Shown here: piece by piece, positions 16,455-46,854 of the stretch
How positions within the stretch are numbered: the stretch's first letter is position 1
Layout: each line of letters starts with the position of its first letter
From: an uncultured Bdellovibrionales bacterium
GTDB taxonomy: Bacteria; Bdellovibrionota_C; UBA2361; OMII01
Direction: 5' to 3'
DNA length: 64,000 nt
NCBI GenBank assembly: GCA_964413875.1
Contig: CAYPUA010000008.1
Coordinates: 28,556 to 92,555, forward strand
The notes under the pieces: generated by a model
Databases searched by the model: none
Seen by the model: the letters and a program-made list of their open reading frames with translations, nothing else
What the model was told of the DNA's origin: nothing
Made by a program: the position numbers and the translations under genes

Positions 16455-17807
<1,353 letters not shown>

Positions 17808-17937
17808 TTATACCCGACGAGCCGCTTATTTGAAATAAATCCCCCGCCGATCTAAGGTTCCGGGCGGCGCGCTCGAACAATCCGGGCGTGCGGGGAAACG
17901 TGAGCAAAAAAACTGAGCTTTTTACTGCCCTTGCCTG

Positions 17938-33064: not shown

Positions 33065-36000
33065 CTACTCAACGGTCCAAACCTTCCCTTCGCTATTGAG
33101 GTACATCTTCCTCATCTCCTCAAGGGTGAACGGGCGTGAGCCGATGCGGCCGAGAACGCTGACCTGATGGCCTGTCTCGTCAACCGCCCGGTCTCGGTCG
33201 AGCGGCTTCGAGAGCGCGAGTGCTGGCCCCGCTGTATGCTTTCTGGCGATAACCTTCGGCTTCACTGGTGGCGAGAACCCATAGAAGCCAGGCACACGGT
33301 CTGGGTCGGTGAGCTGCACCACCACGAGTCCATTCTTGCCGTCTGCCACGTAGCCGATCAGGCTGGCATTAGTCGTGGCAACCTTTACGTCGTGTGTGTC
33401 GTTAATCTCCCCATCTGCATTGAATCTGTCGTAGATGGAGGGCTTCTCCGGACGCTCCACGTCGATGATGACTACCCCCTCTTTTCCGCCTGCTACGTAG
33501 GCGTAGGTGCGGGCAACGTAGACGTTTCGTGCGTCTGGCAGCGAGATCGTTGCTCCCGGAACCTTGCGTGGCGTCTCTGGATGCGTGATGTCGAAGACGT
33601 GGAAGCCGTCAGCATCAGTCATGAAAGCGTAGCGGAACTGGACGGCGATGCCAGTTGGGTTCCGCGCTGGCAGCATTGCCTCAACTCTCGGATCGAGCGG
33701 ATCGTCTAGGTCGAGCACGACAACTTTATCGGGTGTGCCGATGAAAGCGCGGGCGCCGGTTAGGTATATGAACTGGGCTCCCGTCAGGATCCCATCCTCG
33801 TTCCACGTCAGCTCACGGTCGAGGAAGTTGTTGCGCGGCTCGCCATCCTGCAGCGTGTCGACGTTGACTACGATCAGGCCCTCAACGCCGTCTGAGATGA
33901 AGGCGTAGTGGTAGATCGGGTGCATCGGTGTCTCTAGGTTCTCCGGAAGCTGCTCCTTAAATGGCGCCACCGGCATGTTCGTCGGAAGCGCGAGTCCTGT
34001 CGCGTTCTCGCTTGAGACGTGGGTGTCTTGCCCGAGCGGCGAGACTGGGCTCGTGACGATTCGCTCTGAGAAGCCCTTGTTGGCGATGTTTGCGATGTCG
34101 TACACACGGAAGCCGTCTGGTCCGGCAGCCGTGTAGAGGTACTCCCCGCGCATCTGTATCGCGCGCGTGTTGCCACCCACACCGTGGTGCCGGTGGCTCT
34201 CCTGAAGCTCAAGGCCGTTCTCTTGGTGCGCCCGGAAGTAATCCGGGTAGGCGTACCTGTGCAGGTAGCTTCCGATCACTGCTTGCGGTTCGTCCCACTC
34301 CGTGACCTGAACTGCCTCAAGCCCCTCTTCGCCGGCCGCAATCCAGGTGTAGTGTCCCATGAAGTTGACGAAGTTCGTTCCGAGCAGGAGGAGCTGCGCC
34401 ATAATGGCGTTGTTGTCGTTCTCCTTCGAGACATGGCAGTCCTTACAACCCTTGGTCTCCGTGGTGCGAACGGTGTGCGGGAAGTGCGGAGCAAAGGCTT
34501 GAGAGCTGTAGCCACCAGCGGAAGTGGGCGGCTGCTGGATGTAGATCTTCTGGCGGTTGACATCCGTTGAGCTGAGAACCAAGGCGCTCGACGAACGGAT
34601 CGGGACGATCTTGCCGTTCTTTGCCGGTCCGTGACGGCCGAGCTGATACATGTCATCGCGCGCTACCTGTGGGTTGTACGACGCCCAGTTGCGCGTGGTC
34701 TTGAGCTCGTAGTGGTTCGATGGGCTCTTCCAGTTCGCTTGAATCGGCAGGTGGCAGCCGCCGCACGCGGTTGTCCACGAGCTGTGGCACGCGAAACACG
34801 ACATATCGCTGTTGGGGTGCGCCAGCTTCTCTTCGAATCCCGGCTCTGCTCCCTGGCTGCTTGAAGCAACCTTGTAGGTCTCTGCCCCCTCATCGAGCTT
34901 CATCACAAGCTTCGCCTTTGCAGCGCGCTTATTGTAGTCAGGGCTCGATGGATCGACTGAGTTTTTGACCTGCTTCACACGCCACTGCAGCCCCTTGGTC
35001 ACGAGGGACCGCTGAACAAGCTGGTCTCCCTCCCAGCTAAACTGCCGCTCACCCCACGGAGTGCGCTTGAGCGAGAGGTCGTGTCCTCCCTTAGGGGCTG
35101 CAGGGCCAGAGGTCTTGAGCGAAGCACGCTTCGTCAGGTCACCGTGGCAATCCTCACATCCGATCTCAACCGCTTGGGCAACTTCGCCGTAGATGTTCCC
35201 GTCTCCGTGCGTATCCTGCGCAAAATGGCAGTCGACGCACTGCATCCCGAAGTCGACGTGGATGTCCTGCAGGTGCACAGCTTTCTTGAACTTCTCTGGG
35301 TCGCTGAACGAAACCTGCTTGCCGTTCTTGTCGAGCAGGTTCCCCTTTCTGTCACGCTTGAAGACCGCGCGGAAGTTCCAGCCGTGGCCGTGGTAGTCGG
35401 CAAACTGGGTGGTTTTGAGTTTCGGGTTCAGGTCAGCAACGCGCCTCAGGAAGTCGATGTCGGTCCACTTCCCGCGCATCGCTGCCTCCTCTGGGTTGTG
35501 GGTCAACGAAGCATGCTTCTCTTCATCAGTCGGGTAGCGCTGCTTCTCCGGCCACATGCTAGGTGCGTCAGACTCGTAGTCCCACATCGTGTACCCGATG
35601 TAGGTGTTCACGAACATGTTGGGCTGGTGCATGTGACACACCATGCACTGGCTGGTCGGGATGGCGCGGGTGAAGACGTGCTTGAGCGGGTGCCCCTCCT
35701 CGTTCTTCGGGATGGTGGGATCGACGGTCACTGACTTTCCGTCGTGGCCGAACTTGGCGTATGGGCCAGAGTGTCGTGGGTCACGATCGTTGGCGTACAC
35801 CGCGTGGCACGAAGTACAGCCGCTGCTGCGGTAGTCACCAGGGTGATCGTTGGTGCCGAGGAAGCTCAGGTGCGGGTCATTGAGCCTGGTTTTATGGATA
35901 TTGAGGATCGGCACCGCGATGCGCGCTCCGGTGCCCGGCCCTCGATTGGACGCTTTGACGTCAGGCTTCCCTGGCTCCTCGAGCGTATTCGGCACGCCAA

Positions 36001-36781
36001 CCTCGGCGAACTGGGAGCGGTTAAAGATGCCGCCGCGCTCAAAGACGCGGAAGATATCTGCTGGCGCGAGCACCTCCCAGGCCGGGAGCGGCAGAAGCTT
36101 CTCCAGCGCACCGCGCGCCTTCATCTCATCCGTCAGAGGACGCGATTCGTCGTGCAGCACCGATGCTGGCTCACCCTGCTGGGTGTACGCCTCCCCGAGC
36201 ATGTAGCGCTTGAACGGCAAGATGCCGTTGTTGTAGGCCGCACCGCCCCACAGCATAGCCGAGGTCGTCATGAGGCTCTTCTTTACGGCGCTCGTTATCT
36301 CAGAGTGGCAGCCGCCGCACGCCTGGGGCGCGGCGCGCAGGTCGCCTGGATTGATGAAGCGCGCAAACTCCAGGGACTCCTCTGTGAGCTGGTTGTAGGT
36401 GTGCTTAGGGTTCGCTGATGTTGGCCACCACTCGGGGTGCAGCGGCTGAACGTGCGCCAGCTTCTTGGCTGCTTCGTACGCCGCATCACTTTCACGGAGC
36501 CCCTTGGCACGCACCGTGGCGTTGCCGCCGTGGCACTCCGCACAACCGATGTGAATAGCCGGATTCTCGTGCATCGTGGGTGCGTCTGTCTTAGTGTGGC
36601 AGTCGAGGCACCCGACGCTCGTCTCTGCCATCCGTACCGGACTGCCGTAGGGCTCGATAACATCCGTGTAGCGATCCTCTGCGAACAGCCCGGTGGAGAG
36701 GGCAACAGCGATCGCTCCGGCGGCCGCCATCTTCCACAAACTCCCCGCTGCTGCTGCCCTGGCTGTCATTGCCCTACTCAT
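33065..36781 (-). CDS. decahaem c-type cytochrome fused to C-terminal LVIVD-repeat beta-propeller
   Basis: 1238 aa; signal/anchor AAAGAIAVALSTGLFA; 10 CxxCH (CLDCH, CAECH, CGGCH, CTSCH, CMVCH, CVDCH, CEDCH, CFACH, CGGCH, CKDCH); LVIVD-like GLIVVNVD, VVVLDLDDP, GVVIIDVERP, GLVVVQLTDP. Confidence 0.85.
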   Translation of the reverse strand: MSRAMTARAAAAGSLWKMAAAGAIAVALSTGLFAEDRYTDVIEPYGSPVRMAETSVGCLDCHTKTDAPTMHENPAIHIGCAECHGGNATVRAKGLRESDAAYEAAKKLAHVQPLHPEWWPTSANPKHTYNQLTEESLEFARFINPGDLRAAPQACGGCHSEITSAVKKSLMTTSAMLWGGAAYNNGILPFKRYMLGEAYTQQGEPASVLHDESRPLTDEMKARGALEKLLPLPAWEVLAPADIFRVFERGGIFNRSQFAEVGVPNTLEEPGKPDVKASNRGPGTGARIAVPILNIHKTRLNDPHLSFLGTNDHPGDYRSSGCTSCHAVYANDRDPRHSGPYAKFGHDGKSVTVDPTIPKNEEGHPLKHVFTRAIPTSQCMVCHMHQPNMFVNTYIGYTMWDYESDAPSMWPEKQRYPTDEEKHASLTHNPEEAAMRGKWTDIDFLRRVADLNPKLKTTQFADYHGHGWNFRAVFKRDRKGNLLDKNGKQVSFSDPEKFKKAVHLQDIHVDFGMQCVDCHFAQDTHGDGNIYGEVAQAVEIGCEDCHGDLTKRASLKTSGPAAPKGGHDLSLKRTPWGERQFSWEGDQLVQRSLVTKGLQWRVKQVKNSVDPSSPDYNKRAAKAKLVMKLDEGAETYKVASSSQGAEPGFEEKLAHPNSDMSCFACHSSWTTACGGCHLPIQANWKSPSNHYELKTTRNWASYNPQVARDDMYQLGRHGPAKNGKIVPIRSSSALVLSSTDVNRQKIYIQQPPTSAGGYSSQAFAPHFPHTVRTTETKGCKDCHVSKENDNNAIMAQLLLLGTNFVNFMGHYTWIAAGEEGLEAVQVTEWDEPQAVIGSYLHRYAYPDYFRAHQENGLELQESHRHHGVGGNTRAIQMRGEYLYTAAGPDGFRVYDIANIANKGFSERIVTSPVSPLGQDTHVSSENATGLALPTNMPVAPFKEQLPENLETPMHPIYHYAFISDGVEGLIVVNVDTLQDGEPRNNFLDRELTWNEDGILTGAQFIYLTGARAFIGTPDKVVVLDLDDPLDPRVEAMLPARNPTGIAVQFRYAFMTDADGFHVFDITHPETPRKVPGATISLPDARNVYVARTYAYVAGGKEGVVIIDVERPEKPSIYDRFNADGEINDTHDVKVATTNASLIGYVADGKNGLVVVQLTDPDRVPGFYGFSPPVKPKVIARKHTAGPALALSKPLDRDRAVDETGHQVSVLGRIGSRPFTLEEMRKMYLNSEGKVWTVE

Positions 36782-38595
36782 TAGTACTGGAAGATTACGT
36801 TTGTAAATGCGTCGTAGAGCACCTGGCTGCCGAAGAGGTTCTTCTGGCCGCTGCCCGGAAAGAGCACTCCTGAGCCCACTCGGATCACGACGTTGTTGTT
36901 AAGGAATGGCCGGTAGAAAAACCCTGCCGAGAGGTCTACACCGATATCGCGCGTAATGGAGCCGTCCTGCCGAAGGTCCTGGAGCACCGCCACCTCGTCG
37001 AACTGCAGGAAGCTCGTGTTCGTTACGAGCTTCAGCTCTGGCAGGAGCTCGAAGTCAACTCCGACGTTGTAGACGCGAATACCTGGGTTTACGAAGTTCG
37101 CTTGCCCGAGCTCTTTGCCGGCCTTGAGGTCCGGCAGCAAGCTGTTGCGGTTCGTGAGGTTGACGCCACCGCCGCCAACGAAGGGGATCGCCTCACGCTG
37201 GAAGAAGGAGAGATCGCCGCCGGCGAAGTTTGGGTTGTCGAAGATAGAGTCAAAGCCCTCTGCCTGCCCGTCGTACGGGTCATCGTCTCCCGATGCCCAG
37301 AAGAAGGAGGCCCGGATTCGCACGAAGTCGATATCGTACGAAAATTCCTGGGCAAACATTGCGGCGTTGATGTCAACTTGTCGGTTGGCAATCTGGTTGT
37401 GACTCTCAGATCCCATGACGTAGTAGAACTGCGTGGTGGTGTTGACGCGCCCGACGTGGCCGTCGCCGCCGATACCGAAGTACGTTGAGTTTAGGTTCTT
37501 GAAGCGCTCATCCCCTATCGGGGCCGGACGCACGAGAAAGTTGTTGCGGTCGTACTTGTAGCCGGCGTCGCCGGCGTTGTCCTGTCGGTTCACGACGCTA
37601 AAGAGCATCGTGTGGCCCATGAACAACATGTCCTGCCGGTACATGTTCGCTGCAAACACGTTCTGGTGGCGGTAGTCGAAGGTAGTGTTGATGCCGGTGT
37701 TTGTGTCCTTGTCGAGGAGAAAGAACGCCGCCGCGTTAAACTGGGTCTTGTTGTTGTCGTAGTTGCCGAAGAAGCGCACGCCCGGCTCGTTGTCGTTGAA
37801 GAGAAATCCACGGAAGTCGGCGTTGAACTGCTGGATACCGATGCGTGTCGAGAGGAAGTCGTAGCGATCAGAGAGATTTGCTAAATGAATGTCCGCGAAG
37901 AGTTCCTGGAAGCCGGTTGCGTTGGCTGTGCGCGTGTCGCCAAAAGCTGGGTCAGCCTTGAGCAGGCCATTCTCGTTGGCGTAGAGGCGGTTGACCTGAA
38001 ATATCGGCGTGATGCGCAGCTCGAAGTCTGGCGGCTTGAAGGCTGTGTCTCCGCGAATGAGGCTGAACGAGGCGATTACGTTCTCTACCCAAAAATTCTG
38101 GTCGCCATCGCCGAAGACGTTGTTGCTGCTGGGGCGGCGCGTCGTGGCGTTTCCAACCGGAACTGGTATGCGCCTGGTCTCAAACATTGAGTCTGAGATG
38201 AGAGACGTTTCAACAAACCACTCCTCGCCGGGCTTGCCGAACGCGGGGATATCCGCCTTGATGATGTTCTGGTTGTACGGGTCGTAGTATTTCCCAGCGT
38301 AAAACATCCTCCAGCGGTCTGGGACTGCGATGAACTCGGAGGCTGAGTCCTGTATCGGGGGCATGGACTCGTAGATGTAATCCGGGAATGGCGGCGTCTG
38401 CTTGTCGGGGAACTGCCGCTCAAGGGCTTCACGGGGAACGTGCTCCTCAGTTTGCGGCTGCGACTGGGCTGAGGCGGGATGAGCAGTAAAACAGAGAACC
38501 AGCAGGAGAAGCGCGCCGAGGCAGCATCTCCCCGGGCAACGCCCGGCCTCCACAGCGCCCCACGTCCGGGGATGTGAAGCACATGGCTCTCTCAT
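36781..38595 (-). CDS. outer-membrane beta-barrel protein (porin-like)
   Basis: 604 aa; signal peptide ending HPASAQS; long alternating-strand region; C-terminal ..NVIFQY aromatic terminus; stop overlaps the downstream start (TAATG). Confidence 0.6.
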   Translation of the reverse strand: MREPCASHPRTWGAVEAGRCPGRCCLGALLLLVLCFTAHPASAQSQPQTEEHVPREALERQFPDKQTPPFPDYIYESMPPIQDSASEFIAVPDRWRMFYAGKYYDPYNQNIIKADIPAFGKPGEEWFVETSLISDSMFETRRIPVPVGNATTRRPSSNNVFGDGDQNFWVENVIASFSLIRGDTAFKPPDFELRITPIFQVNRLYANENGLLKADPAFGDTRTANATGFQELFADIHLANLSDRYDFLSTRIGIQQFNADFRGFLFNDNEPGVRFFGNYDNNKTQFNAAAFFLLDKDTNTGINTTFDYRHQNVFAANMYRQDMLFMGHTMLFSVVNRQDNAGDAGYKYDRNNFLVRPAPIGDERFKNLNSTYFGIGGDGHVGRVNTTTQFYYVMGSESHNQIANRQVDINAAMFAQEFSYDIDFVRIRASFFWASGDDDPYDGQAEGFDSIFDNPNFAGGDLSFFQREAIPFVGGGGVNLTNRNSLLPDLKAGKELGQANFVNPGIRVYNVGVDFELLPELKLVTNTSFLQFDEVAVLQDLRQDGSITRDIGVDLSAGFFYRPFLNNNVVIRVGSGVLFPGSGQKNLFGSQVLYDAFTNVIFQY

Positions 38596-38599
38596 CAGC

Positions 38600-40486
38600 C
38601 TATCCTTCTCCTTCGGTGCACACGCCCTGCTCGTTGCTGCCGTTGAACGGCGCTTCCGGGCAGTTTACGTAGCGCAGCCGCGTGTTGGGCTGCGGCACGA
38701 TCTGGTCGGAGCGAATCGCGTTCGGTGCATTGAAGCCAAGCAGAGCGTCTCCAACTGTTGTGTAGCCAGCGTAGTCGAGCCCGCGGCGGCTTGCGCCGTA
38801 GTACCCAACCATGTCGTCCTGGTCGACGCCGTCGCCACTCACGCCGATAGCTCCGATCAGGACGCCGTTGCGGTACAGCGGCGTGCCTCCCGGAAAGATC
38901 TGCAGGCCGTTCTTGAGGCGACTGCCGAAGGCGCCGCTCGTGCAGCCGTTCGGCACCGAGCCTGGACTCACGATCGGCCCTGCGAACCCGCCGAGCACCA
39001 GATCAAGCTGCAGGCCAGTGTTAAACACTGACCAGCTCTGCCCGGGCGCTGTTCCTGGGAACGGGAGCGAAAACGGCCCGTTGGCGGTGCCTTCGATTCC
39101 GTCCGGGAAGTACGGCCGCGACAGGTTCCCGATCGCACGCGAGGTAATCGCGTGGCTGCCGTCGAGCGAAGCTCCAGTGAAGGCGGCAAACGCTGACGAG
39201 AAACCTCCCAGGCCCCCCGCCGACAGCGTTGAGCCTGCATCCGCTGAACTCATGAAGGCTGCTCCTCGGGCTTTCTGCAGGGCAACGTCCACGCCAAACA
39301 CCGGCGCATCCTGCGAACGGATGAAGCCCAGCGGGCTTCCTAGATTGTCGACCACGAAGATCGAAACACGCGCGGCTGTGTCACGCGGGGTGCGAATCGC
39401 TGCCCGCGCGCGGCTGGCAGTAATGAGCGCTGAATCGAGAAGCGCATTCACCTCGCTCGCCGAGAGCTGCTCGCCGCCAGCCAGTGGCCGGCCGCCGATC
39501 GTTGGAAAACGCCCGACGACAATCGCTGCCGGAAGCCCCGCCTTGACCGTATCGGCGATTCCCGACGGGAAGGTTCCAAAGGTCGTTCCGGCCTTGATGG
39601 AACCGTTGGTGTACGAGGGCTGAGACTTGAGGCACGAGGGGTCGAGATCAGCCAGATCAGTTGGGATAACGATCTCCGAGTAGCTCGTGTCTGAGTAACG
39701 GACCGAGCGCCCAGCCAGCGAGATGTTGTCGCCCACGCGCTGCGCTGGAGCCTCGAACCCAACGCTTGCCGAGAGCGCAACGGACTCCTCTGGGTCGCTG
39801 TCGTAGTCCTGAAGGTCGGGGTCAATAGTGTAGAGACCATCGAACTCGACTCCAACACCGCCGACCAGGTCTCCCTGCTTGTAGAGCGGGAAGCCGCCTG
39901 GATCCGCAGAGAGGCCGAGCGGAAGCGGCCGCGGTCCGGTAGCGGCGTTCGCCCGAGTGACGTCACTGCAGATCAGCTGAGAAAACTGCACGCCGAAGAG
40001 CGGCCCGCCTGGCTGCTGCCGCTGTCCGGGCAGGTAGTTCTGCTGAATAATCTGCCCCGCCGTGCGGGTCGAGAACGCATTCCCTTGAGAGCTAAGGTAG
40101 GCGCCAGTGCCAGCCTTCGATATGGCGGCTAGCGTCGAAGGCACCGCAAGCCCCTCAAGCGGGCCCGATGCGCCGGTCTGCCCGTTGATGGTAGTTGTGA
40201 GCGGCGCGCCATTCATCTGGTACAGCGCAAGAACGTTGCCGGTGCGGTCAACAACCGAGAATGTGCCGGCTGTCCCCATCGCATTCGCCGCCGTCACAGC
40301 CTGGCGCAGGATGGTCGTGACGTCATCAACCGAGAGCGACTGGTTCGGGCAGCTTCCGTCACAGTTAAAGTTTGCGTTTGGATCTCCGCCGCTGCTCGCA
40401 CCGCCGGAACCACCCCCGCCCCCACAACCCGGCAAGGCCGAGAAGATGATTGCTGCAGAGAGAAGCAGGCAGATGTGCTTTTTCAT
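38600..40486 (-). CDS. lipoprotein with two GlcG/HbpS-like (DUF336) putative haem-binding domains
   Basis: 628 aa; MKKHICLLLSAAIIFSALPGC lipobox + Gly/Ser linker; LSVDDVTTILRQAV..FSVVDRTGNVLAL and LSASEVNALL..IFVVDNLGSPLGF; C-terminal GGTPLYRNGVLIGAIGVSGDGVDQDD matches the GlcG signature. Confidence 0.6.
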   Translation of the reverse strand: MKKHICLLLSAAIIFSALPGCGGGGGSGGASSGGDPNANFNCDGSCPNQSLSVDDVTTILRQAVTAANAMGTAGTFSVVDRTGNVLALYQMNGAPLTTTINGQTGASGPLEGLAVPSTLAAISKAGTGAYLSSQGNAFSTRTAGQIIQQNYLPGQRQQPGGPLFGVQFSQLICSDVTRANAATGPRPLPLGLSADPGGFPLYKQGDLVGGVGVEFDGLYTIDPDLQDYDSDPEESVALSASVGFEAPAQRVGDNISLAGRSVRYSDTSYSEIVIPTDLADLDPSCLKSQPSYTNGSIKAGTTFGTFPSGIADTVKAGLPAAIVVGRFPTIGGRPLAGGEQLSASEVNALLDSALITASRARAAIRTPRDTAARVSIFVVDNLGSPLGFIRSQDAPVFGVDVALQKARGAAFMSSADAGSTLSAGGLGGFSSAFAAFTGASLDGSHAITSRAIGNLSRPYFPDGIEGTANGPFSLPFPGTAPGQSWSVFNTGLQLDLVLGGFAGPIVSPGSVPNGCTSGAFGSRLKNGLQIFPGGTPLYRNGVLIGAIGVSGDGVDQDDMVGYYGASRRGLDYAGYTTVGDALLGFNAPNAIRSDQIVPQPNTRLRYVNCPEAPFNGSNEQGVCTEGEG

Positions 40487-40498
40487 AGTCGACAGATC

Positions 40499-42178
40499 CT
40501 ACCGAGTTAGGCCTTTAAGGTAATTCGCGATATCTTGCTTCTTTTCAGCCGGGAAACCAAGCGCGTCGTGGTAGGAGTGGCACTCAACGCAGTCGGAACG
40601 CACGTAGCCCCCTTTGCCTGAAGATGCGTGGCACTCCTGGCAGAGCTGCTTGCGGGGCAGGAGCAGATCCGCGGTGTCTTTTGAATTTCGAGCCTGCTCG
40701 TGACACGACTCGCAGCTAAACTCTTCGTGCGCGCCGTGGCTGAATCGTGCCGCCGGGAACCAGACGTTGGGTATTTTCGGCGAGACGATCTCGTAGTGAG
40801 AATTAACTGACGTCTGAAACTCCTCTGGCTTCTCCCGATACGAGTGACAGAGGAAGCATCCTGTCTTCGTGAAGAGCTGCCGCTCCGCAGCACGGGCGCT
40901 CTCAACCACTCCTGGAATGCCTGTCGCTTCGATCATCGGAGTCGTCCGCGGCTCGTCTGCCCCTGGCATCTCTCGCTGCATATCCTTGGCTGGATTCGGA
41001 AGCTCGTGATCCTCTCCTAACAGGACAACCCTGGAGTAAGCCGCGAAGAGCGCAGGGAAGACAGCGTCTGCGTCTCCGTGCGGAACCTGCGAGTTCGGCA
41101 GCCGCTCGTCGAAGCCAAGCGAGTGGCAGTCCTGGCAGTGTTGCTCGAAGTCAATCGGCTTGAGCGTCTTGAAATCCTTGTCGAGCGCATGGCAGTCAGC
41201 GCACTGCAATGTGACAGGCCCGTCCTTCCCCTCCAGCCCTTCCTTGAGGTGCACCTTGTGGCCAAACTTAATCGGCGTCGGATCCTTCGCCTTGGGATCG
41301 TCCAGGCTTGCTCGCGTCACCACGTCATTGGCGTCAAGCAGCGAGACCCTAAACTGTGGGTGAGTGTCGAACGATGCGACGTTCTCGACCGTCGCCCCGC
41401 TCTTGAGCGCCGTCAGGTTGCCGTGGCATGAAACACAGAATCGCGAGTCTTCTGATATGATGCCGTGATCTCCGTTGTGCTCCATGTGGCACTCAGCGCA
41501 GCGCAGCCCCAGCTCTTTGTGCTGCTGCAAGAAGTCGCCCATGCCGTGAGCGTGCTCGGTCATGGAGTGACACGCGAGACACTCCTGGTCGCGCACCGGC
41601 TTGAAGGGCTCTGCGTGGCACTTGACGCAGTCATGCTCGATGAGCTTGTGGGAGTTCGAGATCGGGCCCGAGCTCCACTGCTTCTTGCTGCTCGTGGAGA
41701 GCGGGTAGGCGAGCCACGCAACCACCCCGATCGCGGCCAAGACAACGGAGATGGCCTTGATAGAGGGCAGGTACGACTCAAGCCGAAGCTGCCGCATCCG
41801 GCGCGCCACGCGCTCGCCATCCGGCAGCGCGAGCGGCATCAGCTCAAGCCATGTCACCTCCGCTGTGTCTCCCTCGAACGATACGCGAAGGTCGATATCG
41901 CCTAACGACACAACATCGCCGCTGTGAAGCTCAGCGCGGCTTACGGTACGGCCGTTAACCCGGATGCCAGTCGGGGATTCAAGGTCGGTCACGACCAGCG
42001 CCCCGCCCTCACGCGTGAGCTTTGCGTGCTGGGTCCCTACTTTGTAGCTCGGCAGGATGACATGAGAGCTTCCGCCTCGGCCGAAGATAATCGCTGGATC
42101 AGAAAACTCAACGACGCGCCGCTCAGCGCCCCCCGCGTCAGCTTTCTTCTCATGAATGAAGCGAAATACCGAAGCCAT
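40499..42178 (-). CDS. FHA-domain / single TM / decahaem c-type cytochrome fusion
   Basis: 559 aa; FHA FGRGGSSHVILP..VGTQHAKL..VTDLESPTGIRVNGRTV; TM ISVVLAAIGVVAWLAYPL; 10 CxxCH (CVKCH, CLACH, CAECH, CVSCH, CADCH, CQDCH, CFLCH, CESCH, CQECH, CVECH). Confidence 0.85.
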   Translation of the reverse strand: MASVFRFIHEKKADAGGAERRVVEFSDPAIIFGRGGSSHVILPSYKVGTQHAKLTREGGALVVTDLESPTGIRVNGRTVSRAELHSGDVVSLGDIDLRVSFEGDTAEVTWLELMPLALPDGERVARRMRQLRLESYLPSIKAISVVLAAIGVVAWLAYPLSTSSKKQWSSGPISNSHKLIEHDCVKCHAEPFKPVRDQECLACHSMTEHAHGMGDFLQQHKELGLRCAECHMEHNGDHGIISEDSRFCVSCHGNLTALKSGATVENVASFDTHPQFRVSLLDANDVVTRASLDDPKAKDPTPIKFGHKVHLKEGLEGKDGPVTLQCADCHALDKDFKTLKPIDFEQHCQDCHSLGFDERLPNSQVPHGDADAVFPALFAAYSRVVLLGEDHELPNPAKDMQREMPGADEPRTTPMIEATGIPGVVESARAAERQLFTKTGCFLCHSYREKPEEFQTSVNSHYEIVSPKIPNVWFPAARFSHGAHEEFSCESCHEQARNSKDTADLLLPRKQLCQECHASSGKGGYVRSDCVECHSYHDALGFPAEKKQDIANYLKGLTR

Positions 42179-42181
42179 GCC

Positions 42182-43000
42182 CTACCGGAGATACAAGACA
42201 GACACTATGTGTGCGACGAGCGCCGCGCACAGCGCGCACGAGACCGGCACGTGCACGTAGAGCCACAACTTGAGCAGCGCCTTGATGCGCGCCTGCTCCG
42301 CCAGCTCGCGCAATATGTCGAGGCGCTGGTCGAGGAGGCCGATCATCGCCACAGCCTCGGTGTGCTCGGCTCCCTCAAGGCGCGAGAGCATCTCACGCGC
42401 CGCGTTCTTGTCTACCGCAGGCTGACGGCTCCTGAGGAGCATCCAAGCGAGAGAGGGCTTGAACGGCGCGCAGAAATCATTGTAAAGGCGAACAAAAGCG
42501 TCGCTCTTTCCGGCACAGAGCTGGCCAGCCTGCTGCTCAAGCTCGTCCACGCGCTCAACGAGCAGCTCATCCTTTGCTCCTCCGCGGTGTGAGGTGATGC
42601 GCCCTGACAACGTCGAGTAGTTAACGGCCCCCCAGATGCCGGTCAGAATCGTGAGCACCATGAGAACGTACGCCAGCGTGTGCACGTTGCAGCCGAAGCT
42701 GAAAGCAGCGTGCAGCGGAACCACAAGCAGCAGCCCGATACCAATCCAGACGTGCGCAGCGAGCCAACCCTCAAGCGTGCCAAGAGACGAATGGTACGCG
42801 CGCTTGCGGAGCCCAAAAGCCATCAGCCATGCGATTCCCACCGCAGCGAGGATCCCGTACGTGTAGCCGAGCAGTGAGCCGCCGCTCCTGCCGCCGATCG
42901 GCCTGTCGATCAGGTACAGCGCAAAGAGGGCCACGAGAGCGGCTATCGTGATCCAGAGCCACTTGAAGCGCCGGTAGTTGAGGAAGGTCTGTTGGTACAT
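42182..43000 (-). CDS. polytopic inner-membrane protein with His-bearing helices (possible b-haem or quinone-linked subunit)
   Basis: 272 aa; 4 N-terminal TM + ~120-aa helical soluble segment + C-terminal TM; His in helices (AAHVWIG, VPLHAAF, NVHTLAY, YVHVPVS, VAHIVSV); no family recognised. Confidence 0.45.
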   Translation of the reverse strand: MYQQTFLNYRRFKWLWITIAALVALFALYLIDRPIGGRSGGSLLGYTYGILAAVGIAWLMAFGLRKRAYHSSLGTLEGWLAAHVWIGIGLLLVVPLHAAFSFGCNVHTLAYVLMVLTILTGIWGAVNYSTLSGRITSHRGGAKDELLVERVDELEQQAGQLCAGKSDAFVRLYNDFCAPFKPSLAWMLLRSRQPAVDKNAAREMLSRLEGAEHTEAVAMIGLLDQRLDILRELAEQARIKALLKLWLYVHVPVSCALCAALVAHIVSVLYLR

Positions 43001-43003
43001 TCC

Positions 43004-45349
43004 CTACTCCCTCCTCGCCGACGCAATCTGGACAAGCCGAGCTGAATTCACGCGCATCGCAGCCCCGGTCGGGCAAGAGCGCACGCAGGCCGGTCCGCCC
43101 GCGAGATCGTGGCACATGTCGCATTTCGCAGCCTTGGCGGGCCCCTTCTCCTTCTTCTTGGCAAGACCGAGCATCGAGAGCAGGAAGCCGCCCGACGACG
43201 GACGATCGTAGACGAGCTTGATGACTCCGTAGGGGCAGTTGCTGACGCAGTTTCCGCAGCCGATGCACGACTCCTTGATAATCACTTCGCCGTCGACTTG
43301 CCGAACGAGCGCGTCTGGCGGGCAGTCGAGCATGCACAGCGGGTTCTCACAGTGCCGGCACGAGATCGGAAGCTGGATAGACGCGAAGCTCTTCCCGCCC
43401 TTTCGGTCGAGGCGCGAATACCCACCATGCGTCGCGGCGCAAGCGGCTTCACAGTTGTCACACGCGACGCAAAGGTCAGAGTCGATGAGCAGCACGTTCT
43501 CGGCATCCGTGAGCCCTTCTCGCATCATGAAGTCGAGCAGCTTGCCGGAGTCCTCTGTCCAGTCTGACATGGCGTTGTCGACACGGCGCTCGTCGGCGAC
43601 TTGCAGCAATCGCCTGCGAACGTCCGGATCCTGGGAGATCAGCGCAAGGGTATCCTCTTTCTTAATCACGATGGTGTCGCACGCTACCGCCGCCGAGCAC
43701 GTTGCGGAGCGCAGCACCGGCTCCTCTTTTAGGATCGCCATCTCTCCGACGTAGTTGCCTGCCGGGACGTAGGTCTGAGCCACATCGACGCCAGCACGGT
43801 TGAGGCGCGACACCTTCACTGAGCCTTTGCGAATCACGTACAACGCATCCCCGGGCTCGCCCTCGCGAAAGATCACATCCCCCTTCTTGAAGCTCTTCAT
43901 CTGCGCTTTCTGAACGAGCGCCCGGAGCAGCGCCTCGGGCGCATCAGGGAAGATCGATGTCTGCATGGCTCGCAGCATGAAGAGCTCGTCGAGGGCGCGC
44001 TTCACCGACGGCACCGATGCGATCAGCTTCAGCACCTGCTTGCGCGGAGTCTCAAGCAGGATTGTGCCGTCTTCCGCCGTCACCACCGTTGCCACGCGCC
44101 GCCGTCCGGACAGCAGCCCCATCTCGCCGAAGAACTGCCCCTGAGAGAGCAATACGCGGCGATGGCTGTCGATGACGATCTCTACCGAGCCTGACACAAT
44201 GCTGAAGAAGGTGTCGGTGTAGTCGTCTTTTTCGAAAACCGTGTCGCCCGCGCTTTTGAGGTGCAGCGTGGAGTCGATCAGCATCTCGCGCAGCTGCGGC
44301 GCGCTCAGGTCCCTGAAGAGAGGTATGCTCTGCGCGACTTTTTCGAAGTTAGCCTCGAAGCCGCCGGGCAGCTGTTCGAACCGCTCCTCAAGCAGCGGCT
44401 GGTCGGCTGGCTCCACTGCCTCGCCGCGGATGTGCGCTATCACCTCGTAGCCCTGGTTCATCGCCTGCTTAATCAGCGGGTAGCCGATCAGCGCACCGAG
44501 GATGAAGAGCCCTGGGACGTTTGACTCGTAGCGGTGCGAAACTGATGGAACCGCATTCGCGTCGGCGTTCGGGAAAGCGATTCCGATCCCTTCGAGAAAC
44601 TTCCTCGGCAGGATGCAGCCCAGCCGGGCGATCGCGTGGTCGCAGGGCACGACAACCTCGCCCTCTGGCGTATTGATAGCTGCCTTGCTGCCTTCGATGC
44701 GGGCGACCGTTGCGTTGTAGAAGCAGCGGATCTTGCCGCTGCCTATCGCGGCCAGGATAAGCTTGCTATTAGCGTCTTTTGCGCGCGCAAACTCCGAGCC
44801 GCGATTGATGAGCGTCACTGTATTGTGCGCAGAAAGCGCCAGCGCGTTCTCGATCGCCGCATCGCCGGCACCGACTACGAGGATCTGCTTTCCGTTGAAC
44901 GCATCTGGATCTGCCAGCGTGTACGCAACGCTGCCTGCGTCCTCGCCTGGAACGCCAAGCTTGCGCGGAGAGCCCTGCACGCCTATCGCCAAGATCACAT
45001 GCTTCGCGGTGCAGACGGAGCCGCCGTGCGTGATCTCAAAGAGGCCGTCACGCTTGGCGATCGCCGTCACCTCGGCCTTGACCATGTTCACTGCATGCTT
45101 AGCGAGATCCTCGCTGTACTCCTGAAGGATCTTCTCGCGGCTTCCAGCTTCAAAGCGACAGTGGGCGCGCAACGGCAGCCGGCTCGGCTCTGCCATGACG
45201 TGCTTGCGCAGTTGGTAGTCGTAGATGGTGTTGGCGACCTGCCCCTTCTCGAAAAGGATGTGGGTGATCTTATGGTGCGCGGCGCTGGTGGCTGCCGCGA
45301 TTCCTGCTGGTCCAGCACCAATAATTGCGATTTCAAAGTGCTGCGACAT
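43004..45349 (-). CDS. FAD/NAD(P)-dependent oxidoreductase fused to two cyclic-nucleotide-binding domains and a multi-[4Fe-4S] ferredoxin domain
   Basis: 781 aa; IIGAGPAGIAAA and VVGAGDAAIENA Rossmann motifs; cNMP motifs FFGEMGLLSGRRRVATV and YVGEMAILKEEPVLRSATC; CVACDNCEAAC, CRHCENPLCMLDCP, CIGCGNCVSNCP, CDMC..ACVRSCP. Confidence 0.85.
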   Translation of the reverse strand: MSQHFEIAIIGAGPAGIAAATSAAHHKITHILFEKGQVANTIYDYQLRKHVMAEPSRLPLRAHCRFEAGSREKILQEYSEDLAKHAVNMVKAEVTAIAKRDGLFEITHGGSVCTAKHVILAIGVQGSPRKLGVPGEDAGSVAYTLADPDAFNGKQILVVGAGDAAIENALALSAHNTVTLINRGSEFARAKDANSKLILAAIGSGKIRCFYNATVARIEGSKAAINTPEGEVVVPCDHAIARLGCILPRKFLEGIGIAFPNADANAVPSVSHRYESNVPGLFILGALIGYPLIKQAMNQGYEVIAHIRGEAVEPADQPLLEERFEQLPGGFEANFEKVAQSIPLFRDLSAPQLREMLIDSTLHLKSAGDTVFEKDDYTDTFFSIVSGSVEIVIDSHRRVLLSQGQFFGEMGLLSGRRRVATVVTAEDGTILLETPRKQVLKLIASVPSVKRALDELFMLRAMQTSIFPDAPEALLRALVQKAQMKSFKKGDVIFREGEPGDALYVIRKGSVKVSRLNRAGVDVAQTYVPAGNYVGEMAILKEEPVLRSATCSAAVACDTIVIKKEDTLALISQDPDVRRRLLQVADERRVDNAMSDWTEDSGKLLDFMMREGLTDAENVLLIDSDLCVACDNCEAACAATHGGYSRLDRKGGKSFASIQLPISCRHCENPLCMLDCPPDALVRQVDGEVIIKESCIGCGNCVSNCPYGVIKLVYDRPSSGGFLLSMLGLAKKKEKGPAKAAKCDMCHDLAGGPACVRSCPTGAAMRVNSARLVQIASARRE

Positions 45350-45387: not shown

Positions 45388-45576
45388 GCATGAGACTATG
45401 CGACAGAGCGCTTCGAATATAGGTTTCTGAGGCTGTCGAGGCAAATCAAAAGACGGTGTACTGAGGCAAACTTGAACAGCCGATTCAACTTCACGCGCTT
45501 TCGATGGCGCGCCTCTCTTTGCTCCTTGAAAACCGCCCCCATTTCAGGGATACAGCTCTTGGCGATTGGGGGGGCG

Positions 45577-46854
45577 ATGTTTCCAAGGCAAATAAAACGG
45601 CTTTTTATAGCGGCGCTCCTGTTGCCCGCCCTCGCATCAGCCACCCCCGATACATACGTCGGCACCGGCTCGTGCTCCTCCTCGAACTGCCACGGAAGCG
45701 TCAGCCCCCGCAAGGCTTCCAACGTCCTGCAGAACGAGTACTACACCTGGCTCAAGCACGATAAACATTCGCAAGCGTACTCGGTGCTGCTCAAGGCAGA
45801 CGCCAGGCGTATGGCTTCCCTGATGGGGCTCGGCGAGCCCTCAAAGGAGCCGCTGTGCCTCAAGTGCCACGCCACGTACGCCTCAAGCGCCGAGCAGCGC
45901 GGCGAAAAATACTCGGTTGAGGATGGCGTGTCGTGCGAGTCGTGCCACGGCGCGGCGGAGCGCTGGCTTGAGACACACGCAGTTGCCGGCGCCACTCACC
46001 AGCAGAACCTGGCAAATGGGCTCGCTGACACCGCCCCGCTCGACAAGCGCGCAAAGCTCTGTGTGTCGTGCCACTACGGCGACAGCGACAAGCGCGTCAT
46101 GCACAACCTCTACGGAGCTGGGCACCCACGGCTCAGCTTCGAGCTCGACACGTACGGCGTGCTGGAGCCCAAGCACTGGGTTGTCGACGAGGACTACATA
46201 AAGCGCAAAGGCCCCTACGTGCCGCTCTCCGCCTGGTTTATCGGGCAGGAAACGCTCGCTGAGAGCACCGTCACGACACTTCTCTCGCCGGAGCTCTCGA
46301 GGAATGGCACGTTCCCAGAGCTAAGCATTTTTGACTGCTACTCGTGCCACCACAGCCTCGCCGACGCGCAGTGGAAGCACCGTGACTACGGCGGAAAAAC
46401 GGGCCGGCTGAGCGTAAACATCGCGTCACTCGTGATGCTGCAGCACGCGCTAGCTGCGCTCGATCGCCCGCTTGCGGAAGAGCTCGCGAGCCTGACCCTA
46501 ACCATTCAAGACCAGTTCCAAGCAAACGGCTCGACTGAAGCGCTGCAGAAAACCCAAGAGCTGCTCCAAGGCACCATTCGCCCGATGCTGATGAAGATGG
46601 CTGCCGACGAGAAGAGCACCCGTGCTGTCATGAAGGAGCTGTGCCTCTTCGGGACAGCAGCAGTATCACCGAAGTATGAGGTCGCCGAGCAGATCGGGAT
46701 GGGGATACAGGCTGCGATGGCGACCTCGCCCGTTCTAGCGAAGCGCCACAAAGCCTCGCTCGACAAGCTCTTTGCAACGCTCGCAAAGCCTGATGCTTTC
46801 AATCCGGATGCTTTCGCAAGAGCGGCGAAGAGGCTCGCTGGCGAGCTCCCGTAA
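45577..46854 (+). CDS. secreted multihaem c-type cytochrome (c554-like family)
   Basis: Start moved to MFPRQIKRLFIAALLLPALASA (signal peptide); 4 CxxCH (CLKCH, CESCH, CVSCH, CYSCH) plus CSSSNCH (CX4CH). Confidence 0.8.
   Translation: MFPRQIKRLFIAALLLPALASATPDTYVGTGSCSSSNCHGSVSPRKASNVLQNEYYTWLKHDKHSQAYSVLLKADARRMASLMGLGEPSKEPLCLKCHATYASSAEQRGEKYSVEDGVSCESCHGAAERWLETHAVAGATHQQNLANGLADTAPLDKRAKLCVSCHYGDSDKRVMHNLYGAGHPRLSFELDTYGVLEPKHWVVDEDYIKRKGPYVPLSAWFIGQETLAESTVTTLLSPELSRNGTFPELSIFDCYSCHHSLADAQWKHRDYGGKTGRLSVNIASLVMLQHALAALDRPLAEELASLTLTIQDQFQANGSTEALQKTQELLQGTIRPMLMKMAADEKSTRAVMKELCLFGTAAVSPKYEVAEQIGMGIQAAMATSPVLAKRHKASLDKLFATLAKPDAFNPDAFARAAKRLAGELP

Follow-up and report, generated by a model that had tools for sequence, protein, structure and literature searches.

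Most of what is understood about extracellular electron transfer comes from Shewanella and Geobacter. In these bacteria a cytochrome that oxidises quinol carries out the inner-membrane step. The Hmc and Tmc complexes of sulfate reducers and the NADPH-oxidase/ferric-reductase (NOX) enzymes combine a cytoplasmic iron-sulfur or flavin module with a membrane dihaem cytochrome b and an extracytoplasmic acceptor, which in Hmc and Tmc is a multihaem cytochrome c. In NOX, the two His pairs are each 13-14 residues apart and lie on two helices. Geobacter CbcL, a dihaem cytochrome b fused to a nine-haem cytochrome c, and CbcBA stand at the inner-membrane end of a chain for extracellular electron transfer (bioRxiv 10.1101/2021.04.15.440034). 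A different group of membrane proteins, the SctD family (YscD, MxiG, PrgH, PscD), has a common layout of an N-terminal cytoplasmic forkhead-associated (FHA) domain, one transmembrane (TM) helix and a periplasmic domain; the SctD FHA has a degenerate phosphothreonine (pThr) site and is a phospho-independent dock for the cytoplasmic protein SctK (PMC3162421; bioRxiv 10.1101/2020.09.22.308627). An FHA domain joined by a TM helix to a multihaem cytochrome is already known from two sources: cluster 403 of the Gallionellaceae, 'Forkhead-associated protein, 10 CXXCH', catalogued in 2023 (PMC10734462), and the 'NHC' cluster of Ferrigenium straubiae, noted in a 2026 preprint (bioRxiv 10.64898/2026.01.22.701106).

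Here we describe a gene of this architecture, gene C, and the genes around it in the window, by which we mean the whole 64-kb stretch of DNA that was analysed. The operon context, missed by a preliminary description of this DNA, explains much more of the role of gene C than the gene does by itself. The operon is widespread, and it probably links NAD(P)H in the cytoplasm, as electron source, with the cell surface.

Domain architecture of gene C

Gene C (40499..42178, minus strand) starts with ATG and encodes a protein of 559 amino acids in which the open reading frame, Pfam matches and homologues define an FHA domain, one TM helix and a decahaem cytochrome c. The preliminary description had given this span exactly, with no strand, and every peptide string that it quoted is found in the protein. 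It had also counted ten CxxCH motifs, and exactly ten are present (residues 184, 200, 227, 248, 326, 348, 441, 489, 513 and 530), against a chance expectation that we estimate at about 0.04 motifs from composition alone. All 20 Cys of the protein sit inside these motifs, and exactly 10 motifs occur in 75/75 locus orthologues. An alignment of 91 sequences contains ten further invariant His (177, 209, 234, 273, 307, 310, 367, 481, 484 and 537), suggesting that all ten haems are bis-His. The decahaem domain, delimited by motif count, alignment and orthologues, spans residues 177-559 (40502..41650, minus strand). Pfam places Cytochrom_c3_2 and Cytochrome_C7 above their cut-offs (PF14537, 42.7 against 25; PF14522, 34.7 against 24.8), and by profile, motifs and distal His the protein is a multihaem cytochrome c of the c3/c7 type.

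The one hydrophobic helix expected from the earlier reading is indeed the single such segment, with its best 19-residue window at residues 142-160 (Kyte-Doolittle 2.17) and a helix at residues 140-161 in the AlphaFold2 (AF2) model. By hydropathy, model and positive-inside bias we annotate residues 140-161 as a TM signal anchor (41696..41761, minus strand); no N-terminal signal peptide was found in the protein. A basic linker helix (residues 120-131) precedes it, and the N-terminal flank (residues 121-141) holds 6 Arg/Lys, compared with 2 in the C-terminal flank. Covalent haem attachment requires that the haem domain be outside the cytoplasm. Together with the single helix and the flank charge, this requirement supports the previously claimed topology, N-terminus in and C-terminus out, and on these grounds we infer that the haem domain is periplasmic. 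Gene C begins 3 nt after the upstream stop codon (TAG GGC ATG) and the FHA-coding part is kept in more than 200 homologues, indicating that the N-terminal domain is translated. Identity as a quinol dehydrogenase of the NapC/NirT/CymA type was considered and rejected: there was no match to these families in Pfam or NCBIfam at E<=0.01, and, unlike in the NapC/NirT/CymA layout, a cytoplasmic domain of 135 residues precedes the TM helix.

This cytoplasmic part contains an FHA-fold domain at residues 5-113 (41840..42166, minus strand), identified by Pfam, AF2, Foldseek and phmmer. The FHA signature that had been proposed at about residues 20-100 corresponds to PF00498 at residues 31-93 (E 5.6e-12, 46.4 bits against a cut-off of 20.7). 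The AF2 model has a confident beta-sandwich with the eleven-strand FHA fold over residues 5-113 (pLDDT 95-98), and the best 50 Foldseek matches in the PDB are FHA domains in 50/50 cases, with probability 1.00, led by GarA, EmbR, Rv1747, FhaA and DgcB. A phmmer comparison with Rv1747 FHA-2 gives E 6.9e-9.

In the pThr site of FHA domains, the Ser of an SxxH motif contacts the phosphate and the Asn of an NG motif before strand 7 binds the peptide backbone. Together with a GR motif, these have been described as crucial for pThr binding (PMC3162421). Gene C keeps GR as G33-R34; both residues are invariant among the 64 locus orthologues, the Arg is kept in 199/221 FHA-bearing relatives, and the Arg70-equivalent is 90-100% conserved overall. 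The SxxH motif reads G48-T-Q-H51, with the His kept and the Ser lost. While the His88-equivalent is 96-100% conserved in the family, the Ser is present in 118/221 FHA-bearing relatives (53%), with Ala or Gly at this position in about 37% of the family; by group, the Ser85-equivalent is kept in 31/44 Bdellovibrionota (70%) compared with 1/20 Gammaproteobacteria. In place of NG, gene C has T70-G71, and the Asn occurs in only 8/221 relatives (3.6%). The equivalents of Asn86 and Thr106 are mostly hydrophobic, Leu being the commonest residue at both (155/221 and 105/221). G33, R34, H51, G71 and N75 are invariant or nearly so, conserved positions cluster in the apical loops (GRGG, VSLxHA and DLxSLxG), and the mean pairwise identity of the FHA domain is 38.5%, compared with 27% for the linker and TM region. 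Judged from these sequences, the gene C FHA is non-canonical, with most of the residues that bind pThr gone: the scaffold and a conserved apical face are kept, the NG Asn is lost family-wide and the SxxH Ser is lost in this protein.

The conserved gene cluster

Genes A to F are read from the minus strand and are closely spaced: 3 nt between A and B, 3 between B and C, 12 between C and D, 4 between D and E, and a 1-nt overlap between E and F. We compared 78 loci from Bdellovibrionota and Gammaproteobacteria, and the order A-B-C-D-E-F, with G in addition, is collinear in essentially every locus that is long enough. Gene A is present in 70/78 loci, and the loci without it are mostly short or incomplete contigs. 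The exception, L069, is an orphan copy without A or B and counts against the conduit reading given below; a paralogous locus, L036, has A-B-C only. The distribution of the FHA and multihaem architecture, surveyed over more than 250 homologues, spans phyla that share about 30% identity, and at least 1909 representative proteins match the family profile at E<=1e-30. The carriers are uncultured Bdellovibrionota and Gammaproteobacteria, among them abundant, uncultured lake and sediment lineages. No protein of the A-G cluster reaches an NCBIfam curated cut-off, and the cluster therefore has no curated name. Promoter and terminator scans at the operon gave nothing above chance.

Gene A (43004..45349, minus strand) encodes a flavo-iron-sulfur protein of 781 amino acids, as judged from Pfam, sub-threshold NCBIfam matches and Cys motifs. 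It has a TrxR/YpdA-like FAD/NAD(P)H region, two cyclic-nucleotide (cNMP)-binding domains and, in a C-terminus like that of HydN/AegA, 16 Cys that make up four [4Fe-4S] motifs. In 63 sequences none of the 16 Cys is lost, and both phosphate-binding cassettes are conserved too. Neither a signal peptide nor a TM helix was found in the protein, which is annotated as cytoplasmic. The conserved regulatory domains of the operon are cNMP sensors and not kinase-linked domains. As a separate observation, A contains invariant Thr/Ser residues, including T41, T378, T421, T640 and T761, and the cytoplasmic loop of B contains T75; several of the invariant Thr/Ser in A and B belong to known cofactor motifs, and none is tied to FHA binding.

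Gene B (42182..43000, minus strand) encodes a protein of 272 amino acids with five TM helices, which alignments, the AF2 model and weak similarity to PF01292 mark as a probable dihaem cytochrome b with two b-haems. Two pairs of invariant His, spaced i/i+14, lie on TM3 (H83/H97) and TM5 (H250/H264), and H107 is invariant as well (alignments of 70 and 54 sequences); in the AF2 model, which has five long helices, TM3 and TM5 run parallel. B thus carries the four conserved TM His of a dihaem cytochrome b, from which haem binding is predicted. All four are confined to two helices, an arrangement shared with bc1 and NOX that sets B apart from the Geobacter bc-cytochromes CbcL and CbcBA. A helical insert of 110 residues (about 130-240) is cytoplasmic. 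Sub-threshold matches to PF01292, prokaryotic cytochrome b561, occur in 50/54 B members (best E 3.9e-6), and the gene B of the window scores 13.1 bits against a cut-off of 30.1, which suggests a remote relationship to this family and not membership. Ferric_reduct is matched weakly by 1/54 members. The gene B model had no significant Foldseek match in the PDB (best E 0.056, BAR-domain noise), and the gene B profile against PDB sequences matched only the helical insert, at chance level.

Downstream of C, gene D (38600..40486, minus strand) encodes a predicted lipoprotein of 628 amino acids, recognised by Pfam and by its N-terminus, with the lipobox LPGC and three stretches resembling the haem-binding/degrading protein HbpS (PF03928, 71.9 bits); it is syntenic in 61 loci. 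Gene E (36781..38595, minus strand) encodes a secreted protein of 604 amino acids that, from its signal peptide and composition, we infer to be a porin or other outer-membrane beta-barrel. It has no TM helix, 13.9% aromatic residues and a conserved C-terminal Tyr, and is syntenic in 51 loci. It had no match in Pfam, NCBIfam or the PDB, including a profile search of the PDB, and a crude score of beta-amphipathicity did not distinguish it from controls. Gene F (33065..36781, minus strand) encodes, by motifs and Pfam, a secreted decahaem cytochrome of 1238 amino acids with 10 CxxCH and a C-terminal LVIVD (beta-propeller) region (47.5 bits), in addition to matches to cytochrome families; among the proteins of the cluster it is the best conserved, with 56-84% identity across phyla. 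Gene G (45472..46854, plus strand) is cytochrome c554-like (Cytochrome_C554, 48 bits), with 4 CxxCH and one CSSSNCH. In the window it is divergently transcribed and its start codon is uncertain. In 51 loci it adjoins the cluster; the Bdellovibrionota have it upstream and in divergent orientation, and in Gammaproteobacteria it lies downstream of F.

A candidate trans-envelope electron conduit

In the best reading of this locus, to which we give a probability of about 0.55, the inner-membrane module of a trans-envelope electron conduit is of a Cbc-like kind and docks through a non-canonical FHA domain. A, B and C would form a conserved three-subunit redox module of the inner membrane, with gene C as its periplasmic decahaem arm. 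A would be the FAD/NAD(P)H enzyme on the cytoplasmic side, in which four [4Fe-4S] clusters form a chain and two domains sense cyclic nucleotides; in B, the His pairs on TM3 and TM5 would ligate two b-haems stacked across the membrane; and C, held in the membrane by its one helix, would extend ten bis-His c-haems into the periplasm. In the window the module appears to be co-transcribed with the lipoprotein D, the putative barrel E and the secreted decahaem/beta-propeller protein F. Together, A-F may constitute a conduit to an extracellular acceptor, with NAD(P)H and/or quinol as the electron source and export as the most plausible direction.

Under this conduit reading, the FHA fold is most likely a phosphorylation-independent docking or assembly domain for A or for the cytoplasmic insert of B, by analogy with the SctD/MxiG FHA at the type III sorting platform, and it would tune the module while being inessential to it. 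FHA presence in distant representatives was scored by an HMM built from the family alignment. The domain is retained in 87% of 254 ten-haem family members and was lost at least four times independently, with the FHA-less orthologues remaining in the same operon. Three loci scored as FHA-less (L004, L012 and L045) were rejected as artefacts of a frameshift, a contig edge or a start call in the ORF calls; tblastn recovers the FHA region in L004 and L045. A partner segment lost together with the FHA domain was sought in A and B, and their lengths are the same in FHA-bearing and FHA-less operons. This normal length, with no signal of co-loss, counts against FHA docking on A or B.

Another reading, possible though not probable, makes B and C a Cbc-type quinol:cytochrome c oxidoreductase, with A as a separate cNMP-regulated oxidoreductase or regulator and the FHA domain serving homo-oligomerisation or autoinhibition of C. 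The unchanged A and B of FHA-less operons fit this arrangement, as does the similarity, although weak, of B to PF01292, a family of quinone-reactive cytochromes b. There is also precedent, since in CbcL and CbcBA a dihaem cytochrome b and a TM-anchored multihaem cytochrome c suffice for quinol-linked extracellular electron transfer (bioRxiv 10.1101/2021.04.15.440034), and a quinone link has been proposed for the FHA-nonahaem protein of Ferrigenium (bioRxiv 10.64898/2026.01.22.701106). However, A is linked to B-C as tightly as any gene of the cluster, by 3-nt gaps and by its presence in 70 of the 78 loci, and it is retained in the paralogue that has A-B-C only. With its chain of four iron-sulfur clusters, A looks like the electron-wire subunits whose normal docking site is a membrane cytochrome b, and the 110-residue insert of B suggests a cytoplasmic docking surface.

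The preliminary description had proposed that the cytoplasmic tail of the cytochrome docks onto partners phosphorylated by Ser/Thr kinases and so connects phospho-signalling to an electron chain. The fold, the one TM helix and the topology on which it was built all stand, but docking of the tail on kinase substrates is not supported: Ser is replaced by Gly48 and Asn by Thr70, the domain has been lost repeatedly, and no kinase signature was found. The kinase test was a regular expression, a crude one, with a reach of 64 kb of this genome and about 10 kb on each side at the other loci; no Hanks-type signature appeared anywhere in the window or, across the 78 loci, at a distance of up to 10 kb from the gene, and Pfam scans of the window ORFs found no kinase (Pkinase) or PP2C phosphatase. 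We consider it doubtful that the FHA domain is a working pThr reader and that a Hanks-type kinase elsewhere in the genome phosphorylates a partner that docks on C. Such a model draws on the true FHA fold, on the conserved Gly-Arg and His, on the Ser retained in most Bdellovibrionota, and on closest solved relatives (Rv1747 FHA-2, FhaA, GarA and EmbR, 26-34% identity) that are pThr readers; FHA/pThr signalling also exists in the phylum, and the FHA-phosphopeptide structure of Bdellovibrio DgcB (6hc1) is among the fold matches. Against it stand the near-absence of the NG Asn, the Ala/Gly at the Ser position and the scarcity of this Ser in Gammaproteobacteria, all in motifs described as crucial for pThr binding (PMC3162421), the mostly hydrophobic Asn86 and Thr106 equivalents, and an operon whose conserved regulatory domains are cNMP sensors. 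The same conserved Arg (90-100%), the Ser in 70% of Bdellovibrionota and the pThr-reading relatives also weigh against a pThr-independent FHA, and phospho-dependent binding in part of the gene C family is possible.

We would call unlikely, and put forward as speculation, a bolder version in which A-B-C is an unrecognised, signal-gated electron valve of a 'bacterial NOX-like' kind. The electrons of NAD(P)H would skip the quinone pool and travel through FAD, the four FeS clusters, the two b-haems and the ten c-haems, to leave by a porin-cytochrome exit. The FHA domain would reversibly capture A, or a phosphorylated or otherwise modified A, while the cNMP sensors set the flux, so that second-messenger and possibly phospho-signalling directly switch a trans-envelope conduit on and off. 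Its hosts would be uncultured Bdellovibrionota, Woeseiaceae, Steroidobacteraceae and iron-oxidising Gallionellaceae. That the FHA domain is a vestigial remnant without current function, as its independent losses and degraded canonical ligand-binding residues might suggest, is very improbable given its retention across phyla sharing only about 30% identity, its higher identity than the linker and TM region, and (near-)invariant residues and conserved loops that are the apical binding loops.

Returning to the conduit reading, A-B-C differs from the inner-membrane step of Shewanella and Geobacter in joining a flavin/FeS/cNMP protein, a probable dihaem cytochrome b and an FHA-tagged decahaem cytochrome c, and it is conserved with putative outer-membrane partners across two phyla. 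If B carries b-haems fed by A, cytoplasmic reducing power could reach the surface without the quinone pool and under cyclic-nucleotide control, and, if this is true, views of the carriers' redox balance, their metal cycling or their production of extracellular oxidants would change.

Comparison with known systems

The cluster resembles porin-cytochrome conduits (MtrCAB and Geobacter Pcc/Ext) in gene order: one component that is periplasmic or a lipoprotein, a large secreted protein resembling a barrel, and a cytochrome with many haems suggest an outer-membrane conduit. Membership of the Mtr or Pcc type was rejected, leaving a functional analogy only; E matches no known porin family, and F and G are far below the Mtr/DmsE/ExtM cut-offs (G, 21.8 against a DmsE cut-off of 192). 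Hmc, Tmc and NOX share the logic proposed for A-B-C, although no component reaches their family thresholds, and HmcA, HmcB and DsrO appear as weak sub-threshold NCBIfam matches from the cluster.

For the FHA domain, the mycobacterial pThr readers (Rv1747 FHA-2, FhaA/Rv0020c, GarA and EmbR) are the best matches, over residues 21-99 with E 6.9e-9 to 5e-5. They share with gene C the GR, the His and a second NG, with a Foldseek probability of 1.0, but have S-R-x-H and S-x-N-G-T where gene C has G-T-Q-H and S-P-T-G-I. Identity as the SctD/YscD inner-ring protein of a type III secretion system was rejected: Yop-YscD_cpl (PF16697) is marginal (34.1 against a cut-off of 33.2), the periplasmic part is a cytochrome, and there are no such secretion genes in the window. 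Gene C has a decahaem cytochrome in place of the ring-building periplasmic domain of SctD, and its FHA keeps GR and the His and is nearer, by sequence and fold, to the mycobacterial pThr readers than to 4d9v. If docking holds, it would be the second bacterial case, after SctD, of an FHA fold re-used for membrane-proximal docking.

The Gallionellaceae cluster 403 and Ferrigenium 'NHC' proteins, likely homologous to the gene C protein, share with it the FHA domain in the cytosol, the single TM helix and the multihaem part in the periplasm, and have 5-TM and [4Fe-4S] proteins as neighbours. The Ferrigenium cluster, as described in the preprint, differs in its nine haems, its flanking nirK and SHP genes and the absence of porin or large multihaem neighbours. 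That preprint found no redox motif in the TM protein (bioRxiv 10.64898/2026.01.22.701106), and the prediction of a dihaem cytochrome b for B would fill this gap in the only paper that discusses the architecture. CbcL and CbcBA have no detectable sequence homology to A-B-C, and the Geobacter proteins are without an FHA domain and without a flavin/FeS/cNMP partner, but they share, if the haems predicted for B are present, the pairing of a dihaem cytochrome b with a membrane-anchored, periplasmic multihaem cytochrome c.

The FHA-decahaem protein and its relatives

The gene under study (40499-42178, minus strand) is a single ORF with an ATG start, and its 559-aa product (protein C) combines an FHA domain with a multihaem cytochrome. 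Pfam scores an FHA domain over residues 31-93 at 46.4 bits (cut-off 20.7, E = 5.6e-12), and cytochrome c3/c7 families also score above their own cut-offs. The CxxCH motifs number exactly ten (residues 184, 200, 227, 248, 326, 348, 441, 489, 513 and 530) and contain all 20 of the protein's cysteines. One segment is strongly hydrophobic (Kyte-Doolittle 2.17 in the top stretch, 142-160), and the N-terminus lacks a signal peptide. The AlphaFold2 model, based on a 91-sequence alignment (mean pLDDT 84), shows a beta-sandwich at residues 5-113 (pLDDT 95-98); residues 120-131 form a basic linker helix and residues 140-161 a transmembrane (TM) helix. In a Foldseek comparison of this model with the PDB the top 50 of 50 matches were FHA domains, and none matched the whole protein. 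The FHA signature, the one TM helix and the ten haem motifs read in the preliminary description are thus all confirmed well past chance by Pfam, AlphaFold2, Foldseek and the motif count, and the feature is real rather than an artefact.

Haem is attached covalently outside the cytoplasm by the Ccm/Ccs systems. Because there is a sole TM helix, we strongly infer that the FHA domain lies inside the cytoplasm and the ten haems in the periplasm, as had been proposed; the Arg/Lys bias around the helix (six residues on the N-terminal side, 121-141, versus two on the C-terminal side) supports this topology. Ten histidines outside the CxxCH motifs are invariant in the 91 sequences (H177, H209, H234, H273, H307, H310, H367, H481, H484 and H537), giving one candidate distal ligand per haem. 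As far as sequence can indicate, this is the pattern of a bis-His electron-transfer wire and not that of a catalytic cytochrome.

A word-indexed search returned 226 relatives, more than 100 of them full-length FHA plus multihaem clusters (38-98% identity), mostly unnamed or annotated as "FHA domain-containing protein". When 1.84 billion representatives were searched exhaustively with a profile, 1909 proteins reached E <= 1e-30; E is <= 1e-99 throughout the best 150, whose alignments mostly run from the FHA domain to the C-terminus. The FHA domain is present in 221 of the 254 ten-haem members retrieved, and the other 33 begin straight at the TM helix. This survey places the architecture in uncultured Bdellovibrionota, where the window is 96% identical to a Bdellovibrionales MAG (L001), and in a gammaproteobacterial branch (~30% identity) comprising Steroidobacteraceae, Woeseiaceae, Ahniellaceae, Rhodanobacteraceae and others. 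All 75 locus orthologues carry exactly ten CxxCH motifs. Three FHA-decahaem proteins (P0304, P0317 and P0319; 898-996 aa) have ~350-450 additional C-terminal residues and may be fusions to a downstream gene. A Thiotrichales MAG (L069, 4735-6516) carries an orphan FHA-decahaem gene among housekeeping genes (TruD, ExbB, ribosomal protein S1), with no homologue of the neighbouring genes A or B nearby.

A conserved cluster and its predicted electron path

The gene for protein C is the third of six closely packed minus-strand genes (A to F), separated by gaps of 3, 3, 12 and 4 nt and then a 1-nt overlap; the B-C junction reads TAG GGC ATG. A seventh cytochrome gene (G) lies upstream of this run and is divergent. 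When the six neighbours of C were compared by tblastn with 78 related loci, the order A-B-C-D-E-F was the same in essentially every sufficiently long locus of both phyla, while G is divergent and upstream in the Bdellovibrionota loci and follows F in the gammaproteobacterial ones. Two loci (L021, 11656-15491; L047, 11236-15956) have ~4 kb of additional sequence between C and D. The product of G (45472-46854, plus strand) is cytochrome c554-like, with four CxxCH motifs and one CSSSNCH (C-x4-CH); its listed TTG start probably lies upstream of the true one, as a signal-peptide-like segment starts only at residue 36.

Protein A (43004-45349, minus strand; 781 aa) is a cytoplasmic flavo-iron-sulfur protein with neither signal peptide nor TM helix. 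It has a TrxR/YpdA-like FAD/NAD(P)H domain, two cNMP-binding domains and a C-terminus with sub-threshold similarity to HydN and AegA. Its 16 cysteines form four [4Fe-4S] motifs, and 63 sequences retain all of these cysteines as well as both phosphate-binding cassettes. The window also carries a gene for a CHASE2 plus adenylate/guanylate cyclase protein (11379-13475, minus strand), and at L036, a paralogous locus with only A-B-C, CHASE2-nucleotide cyclases occur on both sides (785-2791 and 16725-18755), along with FecR/TPR proteins. These cyclases and the two cNMP domains suggest that cyclic nucleotides control protein A; cyclic nucleotide is the regulatory input that the operon conserves.

Protein B (42182-43000, minus strand; 272 aa) has five predicted TM helices and a 110-residue cytoplasmic insert. 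Five of its histidines are invariant: H83 and H97 in TM3, H250 and H264 in TM5, and H107. By the positive-inside rule TM3 and TM5 both run from inside to outside, so that the i/i+14 pairs come into register, 83/250 near the cytoplasm and 97/264 near the periplasm. In bc1 cytochrome b and in NOX-type ferric reductases, this arrangement binds two stacked b-haems. Pfam found nothing above threshold in B, and profile and Foldseek searches found no PDB relatives; PF01292 (prokaryotic cytochrome b561) gives weak matches in 50 of 54 members, all sub-cut-off (best E = 3.9e-6), that of the window protein falling on TM5. Given the histidine pattern and these matches, B is predicted to be a dihaem cytochrome b, likely of an undescribed family with a cytoplasmic insert.

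Protein F (33065-36781, minus strand; 1238 aa) is secreted and carries ten CxxCH motifs and C-terminal LVIVD repeats. Conservation within the cluster is highest for F (56-84% identity across the two phyla) and lowest for C (29-67%). Protein E (604 aa) is secreted and has no TM helix or recognised domain; aromatic residues make up 14% of it, its C-terminal Tyr is conserved, and it is a plausible candidate for an outer-membrane barrel. Protein D (38600-40486, minus strand) is a 628-aa lipoprotein with three HbpS-like stretches (haem-binding/degrading, GlcG-type); its gene keeps its place in the operon, between those for the inner-membrane module and for the putative barrel.

Cofactor-binding motifs, topology signals and conserved gene order are observed directly. 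On the reading we infer, A, B and C form an inner-membrane complex, in which electrons would pass from NAD(P)H to FAD and the four FeS clusters of A, on to the two b-haems of B and the ten c-haems of C, and then through D, E and F to the cell surface. We favour outward flow on energetic grounds, since inward transfer to NAD(P)+ would be uphill in redox and against the membrane potential. B may additionally or alternatively exchange electrons with quinone, as do the Geobacter bc-cytochromes CbcL and CbcBA (bioRxiv 10.1101/2021.04.15.440034). That B and C are purely quinone-linked, with A separate, fits much of the data and is compatible with docking by the FHA domain; we regard it as possible, though somewhat unlikely.

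The binding face of the FHA domain

The preliminary description held that the FHA domain can dock onto kinase-phosphorylated partners. Its nearest solved relatives are indeed true phosphothreonine (pThr) readers, both by sequence (Rv1747 FHA-2, E = 6.9e-9; FhaA; GarA) and by fold (GarA, EmbR, Rv1747, FhaA and Bdellovibrio DgcB). Binding of pThr and stabilisation of its site are described as depending crucially on the GR, SxxH and NG motifs (PMC3162421). Readers carry G-R, S-R-x-H and S-x-N-G-T; at these positions the window protein carries G33-R34, G48-T-Q-H51 and S68-P-T70-G-I. Counted over the 221 FHA-bearing members, the Rad53-equivalent positions Gly69 (Gly in 214), Arg70 (Arg in 199, 90%) and His88 (His in 213) are kept. 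Ser85 is Ser in only 118 (53%; Ala in 66, Gly in 15), Asn86 is Leu in 155, Thr106 is hydrophobic for the most part (Leu in 105), and Asn107, the Asn of the NG motif, is Asn in just 8 (3.6%). By lineage, the Ser is retained in 70% of Bdellovibrionota and in 1/20 of the gammaproteobacterial branch.

A search for kinase partners found no Hanks-kinase signature in the six-frame 64-kb window or in the ORFs of the 78 loci (<=10 kb flank each side), and Pfam scans of 37 of the larger ORFs of the window found no Pkinase or PP2C domain. A working pThr reader would agree with the Arg (90-100% conserved), the His, the Ser kept in most Bdellovibrionota and the relatives, but the NG Asn is lost family-wide, the Ser is lost in the window protein, the replacements are mostly hydrophobic and no linked kinase was found in the window or the 78 loci, so that we consider this reading unlikely. 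The direct link between phospho-signalling and respiration claimed earlier is possible, yet docking that does not depend on phosphorylation is better supported.

A vestigial domain is highly improbable given its conservation, and the domain is not decaying: mean pairwise identity is 38.5% in the FHA domain, 27% in the linker and TM helix and 48% in the cytochrome part. Conserved positions concentrate in the apical loops, the binding surface of FHA domains (GRGG, VSLxHA and DLxSLxG; also G16/E19). Kept motifs, substituted contacts and conserved loops together indicate a retained binding face with changed chemistry, moved from phosphate and backbone contacts towards hydrophobic residues. A neighbour-joining tree built on the cytochrome domain has genuine FHA-less forms at four or more distinct positions, which implies that the FHA domain is dispensable for core function. 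It is the sole cytoplasmic part of C, and the only other cytoplasm-exposed operon proteins are A and, through its insert, B. The most economical role would be docking to A or to the insert of B without phosphorylation, tuning assembly or flux without being essential.

Comparison with known systems

The FHA-multihaem architecture has already been noticed, without explanation. In a 2023 pangenome table of the Gallionellaceae, one c-type cytochrome cluster is named "Forkhead-associated protein" (10 CXXCH, 27 genomes), and the row above has a "4Fe-4S ferredoxin" protein with 1 CXXCH; no discussion is given (PMC10734462). The lone CxxCH of A (residue 743) sits within an FeS motif and would account for the latter entry; haem-motif counters would mislabel A as a monohaem cytochrome, as that table seems to have done. 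In Ferrigenium straubiae, according to a 2026 preprint (bioRxiv 10.64898/2026.01.22.701106), a nonahaem protein named "NHC" has an FHA domain on its cytosolic side, and its neighbours are a [4Fe-4S] protein and a 5-TM protein. The authors call the combination of FHA and multihaem parts unreported before; they see no redox motif in the TM protein and do not settle on a function. The window protein is likely a homologue of NHC. Our literature search for the combination found no other paper besides these two. New here are the degeneracy of the pThr site, the finding that the FHA domain was lost repeatedly, the prediction of a dihaem cytochrome b for B, the FAD/four-FeS/cNMP assignment of A, and the placing of the A-B-C trio within a trans-envelope cluster conserved in Bdellovibrionota and Gammaproteobacteria.

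The proposed docking resembles that of type III secretion SctD proteins, whose FHA domains dock SctK (PMC3162421; bioRxiv 10.1101/2020.09.22.308627). Protein C is best classed with the inner-membrane bc-type modules that serve extracellular electron transfer, as part of a Cbc-like module to which a non-canonical FHA domain and a flavo-FeS partner have been added.
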